UHGV virus genome: UHGV-0315046 | Origin: a virus | Reading direction: 5' to 3' (one strand) | DNA: 36,193 bases | Shown here: positions 4,858 through 31,421 of the stretch, piece after piece | Numbering within the stretch: position 1 is the first letter of the stretch | Layout: each line of letters opens with the position of its first letter | Notes under the pieces: model-generated | Databases searched by the model: none | The model's input: the letters and a program-made list of their open reading frames with translations, nothing else | What the model was told of the DNA's origin: nothing | Program-made: the position numbers and the translations under genes

Positions 4858-5424
4858 TCAGTGGAAGTTACCAGAGTGAAACACACGAGTCCCGTGCTCA
4901 GCAAGCGCACGCAAACCAGCCATATCTACGGAACTATCAAAAACAACCGGAACACATGAGCGTTGTTTAATAAGACTATTCAGGTTAGTTACGGCAGATC
5001 TAGCATCAGCAACAACGATATAGATATCTCTTGCGATCTCTTTAAAATCAGCAGAAGCTTCTTTGAATACCGATTTCATTGCCCCTTCAAGTCCTCTCAA
5101 TTGATGCTCTATCAATCGAGACTTTTCTGGTTCAATGATAGACAACACATTGTCTACATTCTCATCGGTAGCGTTTGCAAGAACACGATAAGCGTATTTC
5201 AGCATTCGAGACAATTCTTTAATCGAAGACACCGCCTCATGAAGCTCATCATTAGCCCGTTCACTGCTGAATGAGGATTGATGGTAAGCGTGCTGAACGT
5301 TATCAGTAACAACCACCTCACAACTGAACGCAGAAGCTTGCTGTAATAGCAAACCTATTGCGACTCCAGCTTTGGCAGCGTTCAAGCTAAACATTTCATC
5401 AATCCCATTAGTCTCATTGCTCAT
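4858..5424 (-). CDS. Hypothetical protein, upstream partner of the YafO-like gene
   Basis: Start refined to MSNETNG..., preceded by AAGGAGG at ~6 nt. 188 aa, predicted mostly helical, no recognised motif. Stop lies 9 bp before the downstream gene start, same strand. Confidence 0.6.
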   Translation of the reverse strand: MSNETNGIDEMFSLNAAKAGVAIGLLLQQASAFSCEVVVTDNVQHAYHQSSFSSERANDELHEAVSSIKELSRMLKYAYRVLANATDENVDNVLSIIEPEKSRLIEHQLRGLEGAMKSVFKEASADFKEIARDIYIVVADARSAVTNLNSLIKQRSCVPVVFDSSVDMAGLRALAEHGTRVFHSGNFH

Positions 5425-5599
5425 ACAAACCTCCTTCTTATCGGAGATTATCAATAGCTATGTATCCATTGAATACACGCTATGCGCAGTAATTCTACGT
5501 CACGTGATATCATTATGCAACCACCGTTCTATCACCGACTAACTTTACTCCCACTCCTATACATCATCTGGTATCCTGCTCAAAACTAAGGAGGTTGGT

Positions 5600-5929
5600 G
5601 TGCTTGAATGGTTTCTGTTGGCTGCATTAGTCGTTTCTGGTTTGGTGTATGAGTATCGAATGCACTCTCTAACAAAAAAAATAGGAATTCTAGAAAACGA
5701 ATATTGTGCTCTCAAATCCTCACTGGAACGTGAGCAAGGGGACTTAAAAATCTCTCTGTCTAGCATTGAGCGTTCTATAGAGAGCTTAGAGGATAAGGTT
5801 GAGCGTATAAAGAATGAGGATATTCATGATATTAAGGACGACATATCCTTCTTAAAATCTTGGTTGAAAAATGTTGGGAAAATTGCCACATCAACACGAG
5901 ATAAGCTCAATCCATCCATGGATGACTAA
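5600..5929 (+). CDS. Small membrane-anchored coiled-coil protein (moron)
   Basis: GTG start preceded by AAGGAGG. N-terminal hydrophobic helix (LEWFLLAALVVSGLVYEY) followed by heptad-like charged repeats; stop abuts the convergent ejection-protein gene. Confidence 0.55.
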   Translation: MLEWFLLAALVVSGLVYEYRMHSLTKKIGILENEYCALKSSLEREQGDLKISLSSIERSIESLEDKVERIKNEDIHDIKDDISFLKSWLKNVGKIATSTRDKLNPSMDD

Positions 5930-8050
5930 TTACTCCTGTGCCATTCCGCTTAGCGATGCCACAATTCCAGCTCTTGCTAAACGCTGGAACTCTTCGTTTC
6001 CTAGTGCCTCGCGTATTGCTTTTACGGCGGCCTTATTTGCCATAAATCTGCGTTCCGCCGCCGCTAATGCACCATCACTTGCCCCAACCTTAACTGCCTT
6101 TGTTGCCTCTTGAACAGCCTTTTCAATAGCGTAACGACCGCTTCTAGTTGCGGATAATTTCGCTATCGCTCCTTTTGCCATTGCATCAATTGCCCCACCT
6201 GCAGCGCCACCCGCTATTGCTCCAATAACGCCTCCTCCAGAGAACCCTGCGATAGTGCCAGTAGTTCTAAAAGCGCCAGACAATGCGCTCTCTAAAACTG
6301 GATGAAGGCCATTCTCAAGAGTGCTAATGGCTGGCATAGATCGCCCTGTCTGTTCAACATATCGAAGTGGCTTTGTTGCTGCTCGTGCAAGTTCTCCGTA
6401 TGAACTTGTAATCCTGCCAAGTTCTGGAGAATATCGACTAATTGCCTTCACGTTTTGTGGGGTAAGAATAGTCGCGATATGCTTAATTCCAGCCTCTTCA
6501 GACTTACCTCCGCGTACCCCTTGCGACATTGCATCTTGTAATATTGATGCAATTGCTGGCGCGCGTTCCGACTCAGGTAGGGCGCTTATTATTTTATGGA
6601 ACTGACCTGTTCCACTTTTTGCTGAACCCTGTAACGCCTTAGATCCATTAGTTACCAACTGATCAGTTGCAAGGTCTCTACCAAACGCTGCTTCAGCCTG
6701 TTCTTGTGCTGTAAATCTTGCCTTTGACAGATCATTAGCTTTTTGCCAGTCATCAAGAAAACCGCCATTTTGAGCCATTATGCGCATATCTTCCGTTGCT
6801 GCATCACGAAGCTCAGCCATGCGCCTTGCCGTATTTGCCTCACCAGACCTTATATACTTCTGCTCTGCGTCAGCAAGTTTACTTCGCCATGCCTTCATGG
6901 CATCAAACGTGATTCCTTTTTTACCAGTTTTAGCATAAGCAGATGCGAATTGTTTCATCTCAGGAGTTAGCGGCATGCCAGCCAAAATATCACCCTGAAT
7001 TGTAGCGTTCAGGTTTGACATTCTGGCCTTTGCGTCAGGCATCGTGGAGCGGACGCTATCCCATGCGGCCTTTTCTGAATTTTTCATTTTATCAATACTT
7101 GCCAAAACCCTTTGTTTTATGGCTGCACTTTTTTCTGATGCAGTTCCTGCTTCAGCCCCAAACTCATCCAATGCTGAGTTAAATTTCGACTCTATTTCAC
7201 TGAATGCTTTGGTGTGTGCATCCTGTGTAATTCCGGGCTTTGACGCCAGAATCCCCTCCGCCTGAGCAAGACCACGACTACCTGATCTCATGCCAGGAGT
7301 TAATGCGTTGATATCTATTCCAGCAGTATCTGCTGCTTTTGCTATTTCGTCTGACACATTAGCTGACTGTCTGGCAATAATCTCTCTTCCTGTACCAGAC
7401 TTTGCCATTTTCGAAACATCAGCAGCGGAATTTATTGCCCCGCCACCAAGAACTTGAGGTGATTTAGAGGTTAAGATCCTTCCAGCCCCAGAAAGTATCC
7501 CCTGAGCACCAATATTGATACCACTGTTAATGGCAGCATTTTGTGCAAAGTCGCCCTCCTGATTTGCAGCATCAGCAAGAGAACCTGCAATCATGTTTCC
7601 TGCGGAACCGATATCTCCAGCGAGCTTTGCTGGCGCTCCAGCAGCTTTTGCTGCTGTGCCAATTGGCAGGAGATACCCACCAATTGTTTCACCGGCTTGC
7701 GCGTAAGGGTCTGTCGGTCGATCGACTGGACGATAGACATCATCCAAAACCTTGGGGCCACCAAGCCCATGGCTGATTGCATTAATCAGACTTGCGCCAC
7801 CCTGCAATACGTCAAATGGTATGTTTACCAGACCACGGCCAGCCTGTTCTGCAATTTGCCCTGCACTTTGACCACCAGTGAGCCAGTCAGTGGCTTTTCC
7901 TACCAGAGATTGTTCTTCTGGCTGCGATTGGTTTTGAGTGGATTGATCACCAGAAGACAGCATCTGAGCAATGCGACGTGCTCCCTCAGTATCGCCGGCA
8001 GCATCAGCATTCCTTAACGCCGTCATCAATTGTTCACGACTATAGGCCAT
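5930..8050 (-). CDS. Ejection (internal virion) protein, P22 gp16-like
   Basis: 706-aa Ala/Gly-rich protein at the gp16 position after the gp20 homolog; longer than P22 gp16 (~609 aa). Confidence 0.7.
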
Positions 8051-26465: not shown

Positions 26466-27902
26466 TCAGAATCCTCCTTTCTTCTTGGACTGCGGTTCCT
26501 CGCGTTCACGTCGGCGCATTTCAGCAGACTGTTGGTCTGTGTCATAAATAGCGCCATTTGCCTGAATGCAATACACCGTGCCGGTATTGCCATGACGATT
26601 GAGACGAAGGATTAGTTCGGTTTCACCAGGAGGAACGCTGTCATCAAAAGCACCTTCACGATGGATCCCGACCCAATAATCGCAATCCTGTTCAATCTGC
26701 CCTGTATCTCGCGAGTCACTTGGTAATGGGCGTTTATTGGTTCGGCTTTCCAATGCGCGGTTAAGCTGTGTCAGAAGCACAACAACGCAATCAAGCTCTT
26801 TGGCAAGGTTCTTCAGTCCTTTGGTGATCATGCCGTAAGCAAGGTCGTTGCGATCGGCCTTCTCAGCGGTCATTAGTGTCAGGTAATCGACCAGAATCAT
26901 GCCAACACATCCTTTTTCTCGCTTGATTCGACGGCTTTCGCTAACGATTTGAGCCAGAGATAATCCCGGCGTGTCGTCGATGTAAAGCAGGTCGATTTCA
27001 CTCAAACGATTAGCTGTTTCGATCGCCCTGTTGAAGTCACCATCGTAATCACCCTGATAGCCGTCATCAGCGTCACTTGTCGCCGGAAGGTAAAAAATAT
27101 TCGGGTTAACACCTGACTTCTGTCCCACCAGTTTTTCCAGTATCTGATCACCTGGCATTTCAAGGCTGAACATCAGAGCGGGCTTTTTCTCATGCACTGC
27201 GCAATTGATTGCCATCTGGCTGTATAGCGTCGTTTTCCCCATCTTAGGGCGAGCGCCAATGACAAACAGAGAGCCTTTCACCAGACCTTTCGGTGACAGC
27301 ATCCTGTCCAGCGATGGGATCCCTGTGCTCATTCCTCGTTGTTCGCCTGACGGGTCAAATCGCTTCTCAAGGTCGCTAACCCAGTCTTCCATGACCTCAC
27401 CAAATGAGCGAAGGCCGCGACGCGATCCGGTTTTTGCATGGTCTGTCAGTTGCGTGAAAATCGCCTGAATAGCTTCGTACTTCTGCGTCGCAGTCATTCC
27501 GTTGCGGGAATAGAGCAATTCCGTCGCTTCAGTCATGCGGTTGATGGCGTAGCGTTCCATTGCGGTTTCGCGAACCTGCATTGCATAGGCAACGATGTTT
27601 GCGGCGCTTGGCGTGTTCTTTGCGATCTCAGCGATATAAGCAAAACCGCCAACAGACGCCGTTAACGATTTACGCTCCAGTTCATCGAAAAGCGTCAGGC
27701 CATCTACTGGCTTTTGCTCCCGGTGCATTCTGGTTATTTCTTCGAAAATGATTTTGTGTGGTCGGCTGTAAAATGAATCAGGCTTCAGCATCGCCAGAAC
27801 TTTCTGGACGCGCTCACTGCTGTCATCATCCAGAAGCAATCCACCAATCACCGCCTGCTCTGCCTCGATGCTATGGGGCGGCGCATAAAAATTATCGGTC
27901 AT
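26466..27902 (-). CDS. Replicative DNA helicase (DnaB family; P22 gene 12 analogue)
   Basis: Start refined to MTDNFYAPPHSIEAEQAVIGGLL (DnaB N-terminal signature); Walker A GARPKMGKTT; 478 aa. Confidence 0.9.
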   Translation of the reverse strand: MTDNFYAPPHSIEAEQAVIGGLLLDDDSSERVQKVLAMLKPDSFYSRPHKIIFEEITRMHREQKPVDGLTLFDELERKSLTASVGGFAYIAEIAKNTPSAANIVAYAMQVRETAMERYAINRMTEATELLYSRNGMTATQKYEAIQAIFTQLTDHAKTGSRRGLRSFGEVMEDWVSDLEKRFDPSGEQRGMSTGIPSLDRMLSPKGLVKGSLFVIGARPKMGKTTLYSQMAINCAVHEKKPALMFSLEMPGDQILEKLVGQKSGVNPNIFYLPATSDADDGYQGDYDGDFNRAIETANRLSEIDLLYIDDTPGLSLAQIVSESRRIKREKGCVGMILVDYLTLMTAEKADRNDLAYGMITKGLKNLAKELDCVVVLLTQLNRALESRTNKRPLPSDSRDTGQIEQDCDYWVGIHREGAFDDSVPPGETELILRLNRHGNTGTVYCIQANGAIYDTDQQSAEMRRREREEPQSKKKGGF

Positions 27903-28782
27903 CGTGTTCACCCTCACGAACTTTCAGGTAGGTATTATCGTTAAGCAGGAAATCAAATCCCTTTTTGTGCCAGACGGTTCCGCGCTGATGGTTTGGGCGC
28001 TCTTCGAACATCCATCGGCAATTTTCGCCTACGTAGCTCAAATAATTTCTCCAGTCCTGCATCGTGAAGCCATGCCCGTCAAGCTGGCGGGTTATCACTC
28101 CGGCTTTGCGCCAGAACGTTCGGATCTGGTTTTTACGCTTGTCATTCAGTGCGCGGATTCTTGGCGCTTCAGGAAGGATTTCGTGGTAAGCATCGACAAC
28201 ATCCTGACAGCTAACGGAAGGTTTTTTCTTGTCAGACTTTTTGTCTGCTGCGGTACTCTCTAATACGTCAGTATTAGAGATATTATTTATATTATTGTTT
28301 ATGGACAACCGTTGGACAACCGTTGGACAATCTCCGCTGAGAGCCGCGCCATTACTGGTGTTTGCGTTGGACAACCGTTGGACAACCGTTGGACAATTTT
28401 TTGCCTGAAAATCGTCATATTTAACGATTGTAAACAGGCTAAATTTCTTCCCCATCGAGCAAATATTAAGCATCCCTTTCGACTCAAAAGTCCGCAATAA
28501 GCTCCGAACTTTGTTGTCGGGGATGAATGTTTCTCTGACCAGAGACGGGCGTCCAGTTATCATCTGACCGCGATCAACAGTTATCGGCCCGATATCCGTA
28601 TTGACGACAGTAGATTCGTGATTAGCCTTGAGGATTAAGTGAAGCCAAAGATGTACTGCCTGAGAGTCCTTATAGAGCCTGCTGTCCATAAACTGGCGGT
28701 GTATAGAGACATACCCCATACTGGATGCCTCCTGATGTTGTACAGGGTTATGCCTGTAATCAGCTAACTTAACGACGCCCAT
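27892..28782 (-). CDS. Replication initiator (lambda O / P22 gene 18 analogue) containing the origin
   Basis: 296 aa; ori iterons lie inside the coding sequence (translated as CPTVVQRLS repeats followed by an Asn/Ile-rich stretch); directly upstream of the helicase. Start codon uncertain. Confidence 0.75.
   Translation of the reverse strand: MGVVKLADYRHNPVQHQEASSMGYVSIHRQFMDSRLYKDSQAVHLWLHLILKANHESTVVNTDIGPITVDRGQMITGRPSLVRETFIPDNKVRSLLRTFESKGMLNICSMGKKFSLFTIVKYDDFQAKNCPTVVQRLSNANTSNGAALSGDCPTVVQRLSINNNINNISNTDVLESTAADKKSDKKKPSVSCQDVVDAYHEILPEAPRIRALNDKRKNQIRTFWRKAGVITRQLDGHGFTMQDWRNYLSYVGENCRWMFEERPNHQRGTVWHKKGFDFLLNDNTYLKVREGEHDDR
28262..28400. repeat. Replication origin: two clusters of 11-bp iterons (CCGTTGGACAA, ~5.5 copies) plus flanking AT-rich stretch
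   Basis: Direct repeats at 28302-28330 and 28365-28396 separated by 34 bp; AT-rich tract 28262-28300 just downstream in the initiator reading direction. Confidence 0.7.
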
Positions 28783-28964: not shown

Positions 28965-29243
28965 TCAGGCCTCAAAACTGTTGCAGCAGTCTTGAGGCTT
29001 TTCTTTTGTCAGCACCTTGGCTACTTTCTTTGCCAGTTCCGCCAATTCCTCGTCTTCAACACCCCACTCCAGCACAGCCATAAGCATGGCCATCTTTGGG
29101 ATAAAACTGTCTTTCCATCGCGAAATTTGCGATTCATTAATCCCTAACGCGTCGGCAACCTTTCGCTGACCACGTACAGCAATTCGATTTAGGATGTTGC
29201 TTGTAATTGCATTCGCTTTCTTGCGAGTACTTGTAAGTTGCAT
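28965..29243 (-). CDS. cII: CII transcriptional activator
   Basis: Start refined to MQLTSTRKK...; core ESQISRWKDSFIPKMAMLMAVLEWGVEDEELAELAKKVAKVLT resembles lambda CII; the 121-aa track ORF is an in-frame upstream extension. Confidence 0.8.
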   Translation of the reverse strand: MQLTSTRKKANAITSNILNRIAVRGQRKVADALGINESQISRWKDSFIPKMAMLMAVLEWGVEDEELAELAKKVAKVLTKEKPQDCCNSFEA

Positions 29244-29278
29244 ATGTAAGTATTTCCTTAACAAATAAGAAGTTATGC

Positions 29279-29346
29279 GCATCAACTTATGCGCGTTGTA
29301 TTCCCGCATTTCGGCGGGAATGAGGACCATGACTGTTAAAGAGCGG
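29279..29346 (-). promoter_or_regulatory. nutR (boxA plus boxB hairpin)
   Basis: Minus strand boxA-like CGCTCTTTAAC followed by boxB hairpin TCCCGC-CGAAAT-GCGGGA, between cro and cII. Confidence 0.5.
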
Positions 29347-29351
29347 TGTTA

Positions 29352-29546
29352 CTATTTGTTTTTCTTGTTGCTTGGGAAAGGACGAACTTCCTCTCCAATC
29401 ACACTGCCATCAGGCTTTACCGTAACCATGATGTTACGGCCTGCCAGAATGGCCTTGCTGATAGCGCACTGGATTACACCAAAGTCACTGGCTGCTTTAG
29501 CCTGTCCATGGATTTTGGCGTAATCGGCAAGTGTCATTCGAATCAT
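29352..29546 (-). CDS. cro: Cro repressor (lambda type)
   Basis: Start refined to [10 protein letters not shown]... with GGAGAG upstream; C-terminal [17 protein letters not shown] resembles lambda Cro. Confidence 0.85.
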
Positions 29547-29552
29547 ATGCAC

Positions 29553-29652
29553 TCTCCGTTATTAACCATGAACAAAGAATACTACAGGTATTCAAAGCAA
29601 TCAATACTCAGGGTATTTTTAGTTTAAGTACCTTAGCTATTAGAATTAAGCT
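29553..29652. promoter_or_regulatory. OR operator / PR-PRM divergent promoter region
   Basis: Two clear 15-bp palindromic operators AATACTacaGGTATT (29578-29592) and AATACTcagGGTATT (29603-29617) between cro and cI; cI starts with almost no leader. Confidence 0.6.
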
Positions 29653-30369
29653 ATGGAAAATAAAAAATCACTGACGACAGAACAGCTCGAAGACGCTAAG
29701 CGGCTTAAGGCTTTGTATGAGTCAAAAAAGAAAGAATTGGGAATAACCCAATACTCAATCGCTGATGAACTGGGTATCACCCAAGGAGCGGTAGGGCATT
29801 ATCTTAATGGCAGAAACGCGCTAAACGTTGAGGTTGCATCTGGTTTTGCACGATTGTTGCAAGTCTCAATTGCTGATTTTAGCCAGTCAATTGCTGCCAA
29901 GGTTGCAGAACAGGCAGAAAGCCTTAAGAGCGATGCCAACGTAAGGTATGCAGGGGAATACAGAGCAGGAAAGAGGTATCCGGTGTTAAGCAGTATCCAG
30001 GCTGGCTCGTGGTGTGAAGCATGCGAACCATACACCATTAAAGACATAGATGTTTGGCTTGAGTCTGACGCGCATATTCAAGGTAATGCGTTCTGGCTTA
30101 AAGTGGAAGGTGATTCAATGACGGCACCGGTTGGGTTAAGCATTCCAGAGGGAACATTCGTTCTTTTCGATACCGGAAGGGAGGCGATCAACGGCAGCTT
30201 GGTCATAGCAAAACTTTCTGACTCTAACGAAGCAACATTCAAGAAGCTGATAATCGACGGCGGAAATAAATACCTCAAGGGACTTAATCCTGCATGGCCT
30301 CTCGTGCCAATCAATGGAAACTGCAAGATTATAGGCGTTGCAATTGAGACAAAACTAAGGCTGGTTTGA
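29653..30369 (+). CDS. cI: CI repressor (HTH N-terminal domain plus S24 LexA-like autocleavage domain)
   Basis: 238 aa; N-terminus LTTEQLEDAKRLKALYESKKKELGITQ resembles lambda CI; Ala-Gly cleavage site (SIQAGSW), catalytic Ser (EGDSMTAP) and Lys (FKKLI). Confidence 0.9.
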   Translation: MENKKSLTTEQLEDAKRLKALYESKKKELGITQYSIADELGITQGAVGHYLNGRNALNVEVASGFARLLQVSIADFSQSIAAKVAEQAESLKSDANVRYAGEYRAGKRYPVLSSIQAGSWCEACEPYTIKDIDVWLESDAHIQGNAFWLKVEGDSMTAPVGLSIPEGTFVLFDTGREAINGSLVIAKLSDSNEATFKKLIIDGGNKYLKGLNPAWPLVPINGNCKIIGVAIETKLRLV

Positions 30370-30386
30370 TCACGCAAGGGGCGATT

Positions 30387-30755
30387 ATGGTTGGAACCGC
30401 TATAGCAAGCTTTTTGGGGATGTTGGCAATCTCAACAATTTACGGCTTAGCGCATGCTTTTATTGCGAAATCTCTATCAGAAAAAATAAGCCAGGCTTGG
30501 GCGCATAGATCTGCTCGTTTCATGATTCTAGTGGTCATAGCAATACAAGGGATATCTGCATTTATCCTCTATGGATCAAGCTTATACCTGTTGTATCAAG
30601 GCGCGACATTTACGCCTTACACCAGTGATTACGGAACTCTATACGATGGTAGTGAAGACATCTCTATGGCTTGGATCGTCTTTGGTTTATCTATGGCCGT
30701 GTCTGTTGTAGCAGACATCATTAAGGTAATTCTCGTCTTAACCTTCGCTGACTAA
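30387..30755 (+). CDS. Small multi-pass membrane protein co-transcribed with cI (rexB-position moron)
   Basis: Start refined to MVGTAIASFLG... with AAGGGG upstream; about four hydrophobic helices by inspection; begins 18 bp after the cI stop and ends before OL. Confidence 0.55.
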   Translation: MVGTAIASFLGMLAISTIYGLAHAFIAKSLSEKISQAWAHRSARFMILVVIAIQGISAFILYGSSLYLLYQGATFTPYTSDYGTLYDGSEDISMAWIVFGLSMAVSVVADIIKVILVLTFAD

Positions 30756-30834
30756 CCCATAATCCCGGCAGCAATAGCTATCGGGATCCACTTCACATAT
30801 CCCGCATAAAAAGCACTGAACAAGCAGACACCGA

Positions 30835-30930
30835 AAAAATAAATATCCTTTGTATTCATTTGCTTATCATTATTTTATCAAAAATAAATACCTTGGGTAT
30901 TTACACAATAAAATACCTACAGTATTCTTT
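30835..30930. promoter_or_regulatory. OL operator / PL promoter region
   Basis: Operator palindromes with the same half-sites as OR: AATACCttgGGTATT, AATACCtacAGTATT and a degenerate AATATcctttGTATT. Confidence 0.55.
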
Positions 30931-30972
30931 AGCCATCAGCAGGACGCTGGTAGCCAAACGGAACAGATTGGC

Positions 30973-31015
30973 AGGCTCTTTAACATTGATGGGATTGTCC
31001 CGCCGAAATGCGGGA
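30973..31015 (+). promoter_or_regulatory. nutL (boxA plus boxB hairpin)
   Basis: GGCTCTTTAAC followed by TCCCGC-CGAAAT-GCGGGA, identical in boxB to the nutR copy, about 110 nt upstream of N. Confidence 0.5.
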
Positions 31016-31121
31016 ACCAAAGAGTAGTTGGCTTTGGGGTGACGTGAAGTGCAGCTGCACGACGGCAACCGGAAGATAAGCCCCGGCGCGTCACCGCCAA
31101 AGTCAATCATCGGAGGTCAAC

Positions 31122-31421
31122 ATGACAGTAGTCATTACATATCTGGCTGACGATAACGCCAGAAATCGCCGCAGAGCACGCAGACAGGCTCAACGTGAGC
31201 AGGTAATGCAAGAGCAGCGACTGGCGCGAAAAATTGCGCTAAAGCTCTCTGGTTGCGTCAGAGCAGACAAAGCAGCATCACTCGGAAGCCTTCGCTGCAA
31301 TAAGGCAGAAGAAGTCGAGCGTAAACAGAACCGTATTTACTACCGAAAGCCACGCAGTGAAATGGGTGTGACTTGTGTTGGTCGCCAGAAAATGAAATTA
31401 GGCAGCAAACCACTTATTTGA
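31122..31421 (+). CDS. N: N-type transcription antiterminator
   Basis: 99 aa; arginine-rich N-terminal motif (NARNRRRARRQAQREQ); C-terminus RIYYRKPRSEMGVTCVGRQKMKLGSKPLI resembles the lambda N C-terminus. Confidence 0.8.
   Translation: MTVVITYLADDNARNRRRARRQAQREQVMQEQRLARKIALKLSGCVRADKAASLGSLRCNKAEEVERKQNRIYYRKPRSEMGVTCVGRQKMKLGSKPLI

Follow-up and report, generated by a model that had tools for sequence, protein, structure and literature searches.

The early-control region of a P22-like Escherichia coli phage genome very probably belongs to the HK620 immunity group

Introduction

The closest described counterparts of the early-control region analysed here are found in phages lambda, P22 and 21, and, as regards immunity, in phage HK620. 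In lambda and P22, the nut sites follow the order boxA, spacer and boxB and are located after PL and after cro, and the N protein carries an N-terminal arginine-rich motif; the same properties recur in the region described here. The boxB hairpins of lambda and P22 are pentaloops (GAAAA and GACAA) on a 5-bp stem, whereas the hairpin found here combines a 6-bp stem with a hexaloop, and the lambda boxB, AGCCCUGAAAAAGGGC, has a GAAA loop core that matches the one found here (PMC2724277). The lambda boxA, CGCUCUUA, differs from the boxA of this region, the core of which, GCUCUUUA, is that of the rrn boxA and which is followed here by a spacer of 13-15 nt (PMC2724277). In phage 21, the boxB loop is the hexamer CUAACC; a C.C pair flanks the UAAC core, which takes up a GNRA-like fold (1NYB; PMC12550061).

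HK620, for which PMC2629481 cites Clark, Inwood, Cloutier and Dhillon 2001 (J Mol Biol 311:657) as the reference, has a GenBank record (AF335538) that annotates OR1-3, OL1-3, pR, pL, pRE, tR1, nutR, nutL, cI, cro and N at positions matching those of the region studied here. We analysed a stretch of viral DNA of 36,193 bp (hereafter, the window) in which an earlier note had pointed out repeated operator dyads and paired nut sites. We consider it very probable that these belong to the HK620-immunity region of a lambdoid prophage or phage, lying in a P22-like E. coli phage genome, and that, by analogy with the systems above, the dyads would be operators shared by cI and Cro and the nut sites would be read by N.

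Layout of the region and identity with HK620

Early control in the window follows the classical lambdoid layout, oriented opposite to conventional lambda. On the minus strand lie a replication O-like gene, cII (PF05269) and cro (PF09048); cI, a hydrophobic ORF homologous to hkaS and an N-like ORF follow one another, in this order, on the plus strand (Table 1). The alignment of the cI product with the lambda repressor (3bdn, E 2.9e-52) runs over the full length and takes in HTH, Ala-Gly cleavage region and S24 domain; as in a lambda-type switch, the protein combines an N-terminal HTH with a C-terminal S24 (LexA-like) self-cleavage domain. Cro belongs to the same family as lambda Cro, which is its closest solved structure (E 5e-19, ~60% identity). 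The two genes diverge from a tripartite operator over PR and the presumed PRM, and a second operator cluster covers PL. The hkaS homologue, for which no Pfam family scored above its cut-off, is part of the immunity module.

Positions 29250-31130 of the window are 99.0% identical to HK620 over 1881 bp. HK620-type modules are also carried by mEpX2, HK630, HK140, HF4s and the Stx-type phages phi296 and phi367; these phages, HZ41 and HK620 itself match the same segment over its full length with 99.0-99.3% identity. When at least 80% coverage of this query was required, the module was present in 146 of 5426 complete E. coli genomes. The comparison with HK620 rests on the GenBank annotation of AF335538, converted to window coordinates. 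In a gapped alignment, which includes a 1-nt indel, the window shows 18 scattered differences from HK620, nine of them in hkaS and none in OR1-3, OL1-2, nutL or nutR. OR1, OR2, OR3, OL1 and OL2 are base-identical to the annotated sites, Cro is identical to HK620 Cro at 64 of 64 residues, and cI is identical at 237 of 238, the one exception being Thr66 in HK620, which is Ala66 in the window. The single difference within the annotated OL3, a T at 30876 in the window, is unique among 37 homoimmune loci. Around the module the HK620 genome differs from the window, the remainder of which is another P22-like E. coli phage mosaic.

Because they are base-identical to sites in the HK620 record, we assign these features, on the strength of their sequence, to an immunity group that was already known and annotated (HK620, 2001), and regard them as ordinary. 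The earlier note had held that an exact match of the operators to a known immunity group would make them unremarkable; since they match HK620 exactly, they are.

Table 1. Features of the early-control region of the window, in window coordinates.
Feature	Coordinates	Strand	Sequence	Remarks
nutR	29300..29345	-	boxA GCTCTTTAAC; boxB TCCCGCCGAAATGCGGGA	boxA 29344-29335, 15-nt spacer, boxB 29319-29302; nutR in HK620
cro	29352..29546	-		64 aa from the ATG of HK620; lambda Cro family; PF09048, E 3.6e-26
PR	29576..29604	-	-35 TTGATT; -10 TATTCT	-35 29604-29599, 17-nt spacer, -10 29581-29576; within HK620 pR
OR1	29577..29593		GAATACTACAGGTATTC	PWM 18.9; overlaps PR spacer and -10; OR1 in HK620
OR2	29602..29618		CAATACTCAGGGTATTT	PWM 20.4; overlaps PR -35, abuts presumed PRM -35; OR2 in HK620
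OR3	29626..29642		AAGTACCTTAGCTATTA	degenerate dyad, 2 mismatches; overlaps presumed PRM -10; OR3 in HK620
cI	29653..30369	+		238 aa; N-terminal HTH_3 and C-terminal S24 self-cleaving domain (PF01381 and PF00717)
hkaS homologue	30387..30755	+		122 aa, hydrophobic; downstream of cI and co-oriented; hkaS in HK620
Candidate third OL operator	30841..30857		AAATATCCTTTGTATTC	un-annotated in HK620; centre 45 bp from OL2
OL3 as annotated in HK620	30864..30880		TTATCATTATTTTATCA	no resemblance to operator
OL2	30886..30902		AAATACCTTGGGTATTT	PWM 22.5; overlaps PL -35; OL2 in HK620
PL	30900..30928	+	-35 TTTACA; -10 TATTCT	17-nt spacer; pL in HK620
OL1	30911..30927		AAATACCTACAGTATTC	PWM 20.3; overlaps PL spacer and -10; OL1 in HK620
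nutL	30974..31015	+	boxA GCTCTTTAAC; boxB TCCCGCCGAAATGCGGGA	boxA 30975-30984, 13-nt spacer, boxB 30998-31015; nutL in HK620
N antiterminator	31122..31421	+	DDNARNRRRARRQAQREQ	99 aa; arginine-rich motif (sequence given) at about residues 10-27; residues 34-99 phage 21-type

Operators and promoters

The 15-bp dyad AATACYNNNRGTATT has four exact matches in the 36,193 bp of the window (29578-29592, 29603-29617, 30887-30901 and 30912-30926), where 0 are expected, and none in 100 dinucleotide shuffles. Two of the copies lie between cro and cI and two upstream of N. A search that tolerated as many as two mismatches added just 29627-29641 (OR3) and 30842-30856 in the whole window, both of them inside the control regions. 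The claim that the same 15-bp dyad recurs at two or more OR and two or three OL sites is thus borne out by four exact copies and by two sites at up to two mismatches. The 17-bp consensus of the dyad is (A/G)AATAC(C/T)-N3-(A/G)GTATT(T/C), and the sites are spaced, centre to centre, by 25 bp (OR1-OR2), 24 bp (OR2-OR3) and 25 bp (OL1-OL2).

A PWM trained on the four strong sites was used to rank 36177 positions of the window. The two remaining intergenic sites, 30841-30857 and OR3, take ranks 5 and 6 in the whole window, where the best background score is 9.8. OR3, with a score of 11.1 (rank 6 of 36177) and a local-shuffle P of ~0.013, obtained by shuffling just the two short control regions, is invariant in the 37 homoimmune loci. 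A shuffled 36-kb sequence yields 0.4-1.2 scores of 11-13 by chance, so that the support for OR3 and for 30841-30857 comes from their location and conservation. Among the 37 loci, which represent 36 distinct sequences, 35 of 319 non-coding positions are variable, and none of these falls on the 60 AATAC/GTATT arm positions of the six sites (hypergeometric P = 4e-4); the four changes observed within OR1, OL1 and OL2 are all in the central 5 bp. This pattern argues that the operator arms are under purifying selection.

A promoter scan of positions 29200-31150, with a threshold of 9 of 12 consensus positions, returned PL as the sole promoter-like match. PR is missing from its output because it agrees with the consensus at 8 of 12 positions, below the threshold. 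The hexamer TAGAAT at 29641-29646, which overlaps OR3, was read as the presumed PRM -10; its position 7 nt before the cI ATG suggests that the PRM transcript is leaderless, as in lambda.

The switch resembles that of lambda in having 17-bp dyads, 24-25 bp apart, over divergent PR/PRM and over PL. It departs from lambda in the operator half-site, which is AATAC(C/T) here and TATCACC in lambda, with positions 1, 3 and 4 differing, and in residues of both proteins. In the alignments with lambda, Gln33, Gln44, Asn52 and Asn55 of cI are kept and Ser45 is replaced by Gly, while the recognition helix of Cro reads QCAISKAIL as against QSAINKAIH in lambda, Ser28 being replaced by Cys and Asn31 by Ser. 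In the light of the contacts in the lambda repressor-operator (1LMB) and Cro-operator structures, a half-site in which lambda positions 2, 5 and 6 are retained and positions 1, 3 and 4 altered fits these substitutions: the kept contacts would be those of A2 with Gln44 and of C6/G6' with Asn55, and the changed position 4 would be the one that faces Ser45 in lambda. Because the half-site and the contacting residues differ, immunity should be heterologous to that of lambda.

nut sites and the N antiterminator

The 18-nt element TCCCGCCGAAATGCGGGA (TCCCGC-CGAAAT-GCGGGA) has exactly two matches in the window, one on each strand, where 0 are expected, and an exact copy of boxA, GCTCTTTAAC, accompanies each of them (Table 1). 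The boxA 10-mer alone is not significant; what counts is its placement, 13 and 15 nt 5' of the respective boxB. In nutR, boxA begins 8 nt past the cro stop codon, and nutL lies ~40 nt downstream of the PL start, boxA being followed by the boxB hairpin on both early transcripts. The earlier note had described a boxA-like element and an identical boxB as common to nutL and nutR, and had proposed RNA folding as a check. Both elements were found exactly, one set per early transcript, and boxB folds (-9.7 kcal/mol, z = -2.9) into a hairpin with 6 bp in the stem and 6 nt in the loop, which is kept in both nut contexts. Of these features, nutR (29300-29345) falls outside the span given for them, 29553-31015. 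The loop itself, C-GAAA-U, consists of a 4-nt GNRA core (GAAA) flanked by C and U. No nut or boxB family of Rfam matched positions 29200-31200 at E<=1, and the lone match in that interval, to a eukaryotic scaRNA, is spurious.

The gene just downstream of nutL encodes a protein with the arginine-rich motif ARNRRRARRQAQ visible in its translation and a C-terminus that aligns to lambda N in 6gov. The Pfam family N_peptide scored 18.4 bits on this protein, under its gathering cut-off of 27.9 bits; because the protein has direct homology to phage 21 N, the shortfall is read as a limit of the model's sensitivity, not as evidence against N membership. The protein is a mosaic that agrees with HK620 N over residues 1-64 and with phage 21 N (lambda imm21) over residues 34-99. 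After residue 64 it diverges from HK620 N, and its C-terminus is phage 21-type rather than HK620-type. Across IMG/VR loci, almost all N genes adjoining this boxB begin with M(T/A)VVITYLADDNARNRRRARRQAQREQ or with variants of 1-2 residues, and a single N locus beside this boxB presents a more divergent motif, MTIVVTYLASDTAKNRRRERRAALRDQ.

Comparison with phage 21 sets conserved flanks against replaced elements. The PL leader through boxA is identical at 57 of 58 nt and residues 34-99 of N are 95.5% identical, whereas the boxB of phage 21, UCUCAAC-CUAACC-GUUGAGA, is unrelated to that of the window in both stem and loop, and residues 1-33 of N, which hold the arginine-rich motif, are likewise replaced by unrelated sequence. 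The two boxB elements are alike in being hexaloops with a 4-nt core between two pyrimidines (C-UAAC-C in phage 21, C-GAAA-U here), although the core found here is a true GNRA, as in lambda. The N motif and boxB therefore change together between these phages, and the boxB hairpin and the N peptide expected to read it have been exchanged together inside conserved flanks, as cognate specificity predicts. This joint replacement lends weight to the claim that boxB sets N specificity. We found no experimental study of this pair of N motif and boxB in the literature, and no experimental work on these operator and boxB sites in the literature on HK620 or mEpX2.

Exchange of the operator and nut modules across IMG/VR loci

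A scan of IMG/VR with the boxB 18-mer yielded 120 loci, in a sample that the required exact match biases toward loci with two identical boxB copies. Seventy-five loci present a divergent boxB pair. All those that carry this cI (27/27) have four exact dyads between the pair, as opposed to none (0/48) of those in which other repressors, whether P22 c2-type, lambda cI-type or others, lie between the same boxB pair. This partition is what would be expected if, as had been claimed, the operators set the immunity specificity of the repressor. The nutR boxB is identical to the nutL boxB over 13 spacing values, which correspond to about ten different repressor modules. With some ten distinct repressor genes found inside this one boxB pair, we take cI, Cro and the operators as one specificity module and the N motif and boxB as another, each exchangeable separately from the other.

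Fifteen loci had a single boxB match, and six of these contain enough upstream sequence to include nutR, the others lying too near the locus end. Three of the six present one stem-base change in the nutR boxB, and the other three correspond to an IS insertion, a deletion and a truncated locus. Considered as counter-examples to the identity of nutL and nutR, the single-boxB loci are thus explained by 1-nt variants, IS insertion, deletion and truncation.

Alternative readings of the dyads, the nut blocks and the third OL operator

The association between dyads and repressor bears directly on whether a regulator other than cI and Cro, be it a host factor or another phage protein, might read the dyads. 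Their co-occurrence with this cI/cro pair is strict, their positions over PR and PL and between divergent cI and cro are canonical, and the half-site retains the lambda positions that are touched by residues conserved in cI, with position 4 changed where Ser45 is replaced by Gly; a different reader is on these grounds scarcely credible, and we retain cI and Cro as the predicted ligands. The same loci raise a question about the boxA/boxB blocks, identical copies of which border the exchanged immunity segment precisely on either side, with about ten repressor modules between them. BLAST matches to heteroimmune phages cover just the two ends of the query, and the CUS-3 record annotates a 'boundary sequence' at this place, as would befit mere boundary or linker sequences kept as homologous crossover points for immunity swaps and unread by N. 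The logic of crossover points fails, however, in the comparison with phage 21, where it is the 18-20 nt of boxB and the arginine-rich motif of N that are replaced, as a pair, amid a conserved leader, boxA and remainder of N. Furthermore, both transcripts carry the element as a stable hairpin, spaced canonically from the rrn-type boxA that precedes it. We consider it highly improbable that the blocks are boundary sequences unread by N, and favor their assignment as putative nut sites. The roles of nut site and crossover point are compatible with each other.

Evidence is more evenly divided on the third OL operator, which the HK620 record places at 30864-30880, at a lambda-like spacing of 22 bp from OL2. 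This annotated site obtained a PWM score of -10.5 (rank 7848), and the 37 homoimmune loci differ at 4 of its 17 positions, with an indel and a nearly even split among these differences. The site at 30841-30857, in contrast, has a PWM score of 12.9 (rank 5), the highest of any non-training site in the window, with a local-shuffle P of ~0.005; it lies less than 30 bp from the operator cluster, and both of its arms are invariant in the 37 loci, with one variable position, in the centre. In 29% of shuffled windows, nonetheless, chance alone produces a score of 12.9, and a distance of 45 bp from OL2 is unlike lambda. That OL is bipartite, or has its third operator at the HK620 position, with 30841-30857 a chance match, is accordingly a serious possibility, if one that falls somewhat short of probable. 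Given its PWM score, local-shuffle P and invariant arms, and the low score and variability of the annotated OL3, we prefer to place the third OL operator, if any, at 30841-30857, and OL3 of HK620 may be mis-annotated. This mis-annotation is one part of a wider proposal that we entertain as possible, though short of probable; in its other, separate part, the N motif and boxB would constitute a fourth N-boxB recognition class, in which a true GNRA tetraloop sits on a C.U closing mismatch, intermediate between lambda, with a GNRA-like pentaloop, and phage 21, with a UAAC core on a C.C pair.

Discussion

By analogy with lambda, binding of cI at OR1/OR2 and OL1/OL2 would turn both early promoters off, a shut-off of PR and PL that we propose because these sites overlap their -10 and -35 elements. 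Repressor at OR2 would probably also activate PRM, and Cro would bind the same sites with the opposite preference. The PL and PR transcripts would each present the rrn-type boxA (GCUCUUUA) and then the same boxB hairpin. As in lambda, P22 and phage 21, the arginine-rich motif of N would bind boxB, and N together with Nus factors on boxA would make RNA polymerase resistant to terminators. We infer cI and Cro binding to the dyads, PRM activation and N-dependent antitermination from homology and position.

The region would serve to indicate the immunity range of a prophage, which here should comprise HK620, mEpX2, HK630, HK140 and some Stx phages, and to indicate which N protein can drive early transcription. 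The presence of the module in podovirus, siphovirus and Stx-phage backbones provides an example of lambdoid mosaicism. Beyond correct annotation the region has little significance, its small additions for specialists in lambdoid regulation being a likely misplaced OL3 in the reference and a phage 21-like hexaloop with a GNRA core.

A 36-aa minus-strand ORF (30857-30747) starts inside the candidate third OL operator and was treated as a non-gene because it is without a convincing promoter and is un-annotated in HK620 and phi296. Should the third OL operator indeed lie where the cI-hkaS transcription unit ends, 45 bp from OL2, OL would have a geometry unlike that of lambda.

Nut sites as edges of the immunity cassette

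Among the IMG/VR loci recovered in a scan with the boxB 18-mer, about ten different repressor modules, including both P22 c2-type and lambda cI-type repressors, are bracketed by the identical pair of nutL and nutR boxB hairpins, with the spacing of the pair ranging from 1152 to 2990 bp. The nut sites therefore delimit an exchangeable immunity cassette. The HK620-type module carried by the window is also found in phages with distinct backbones, namely the siphovirus mEpX2, the lambda-like HK630 and the Stx-phage phi296. In the window, segments 1-25000 and 26466-28782 are, on sequence comparison, those of a P22-like (Lederbergvirus-type) E. coli phage, with portal, terminase, tailspike and DNA-transfer genes presenting patchwise ~95% identity to phages E212, JEP4, Kapi1 and CUS-3, and with replication genes that encode an O-like initiator and a DnaB-type helicase.

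On one prophage-like contig (L095), an IS element with two transposase ORFs (5311-6524) interrupts the nutR boxB (region 6520-6600), inserted after TCCCGCCG, and the insertion probably disables rightward antitermination.

Mosaicism of the N gene and structure of its leader

Judged by its sequence, the gene encoding the N antiterminator is a three-part mosaic. Comparison of protein sequences identified residues 1-33, which hold the arginine-rich motif, as HK620-type and residues 34-64 as common to HK620 and phage 21, while residues 65-99 match the C-termini of the phage 21, 933W and lambda proteins, and not that of HK620. This same combination is very common, being present at 94-98% identity in at least 80 IMG/VR loci.

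RNA folding revealed a long imperfect hairpin in the stretch that separates nutL from the ribosome-binding site of N, and the 190-nt N leader as a whole has a folding energy of -70.5 kcal/mol (z = -3.0). This hairpin is retained in phage 21, where substitutions preserve pairing (e.g. G.U to G-C and A-U to G.U). The structure in the window looks like the counterpart of the lambda N-leader hairpin that is sensitive to RNase III. A terminator-like match on the minus strand turned out to be one arm of the same hairpin.

Features of the immunity region of the window
Feature	Position	Strand	Remarks
nutR and distal cro segment matching phage AP1	29252-29486		235 bp
hkaS homologue	30387-30755		122 aa, hydrophobic; co-transcribed with cI
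Short ORF	30747-30857	minus	36 aa
Window-specific T	30876		within the OL3 annotated in HK620
N leader hairpin	31027-31106		long, imperfect
Terminator-like match	31102-31081	minus	one arm of the N leader hairpin
N gene	31122-31421	plus	antiterminator

Variation within the immunity region

The hkaS homologue, which occupies the place held by rex in lambda, accounts for 9 of the 18 differences in the alignment of the window with HK620 and contributes 29 of the 101 columns that vary when 37 homoimmune loci are aligned. No Pfam family was found for its product, and the gene may serve an exclusion or fitness function expressed from the prophage. Position 30876, within the doubtful OL3 of the HK620 annotation, is T exclusively in the window and C in the other 36 homoimmune loci.

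The short ORF (MNTKDIYFFGVCLF...) starts exactly within the candidate third OL operator of this analysis and is oriented antisense, in the direction of hkaS. Since it is annotated in neither HK620 nor phi296 and no convincing promoter was seen for it, it is unlikely to be a real gene.

The segment spanning nutR and distal cro also presents a 99.1% match to the record of Aeromonas phage AP1 (MT713136), at 253425-253659, near the end of its 254 kb; a coliphage fragment at that place suggests that the record is chimerically assembled or contaminated.
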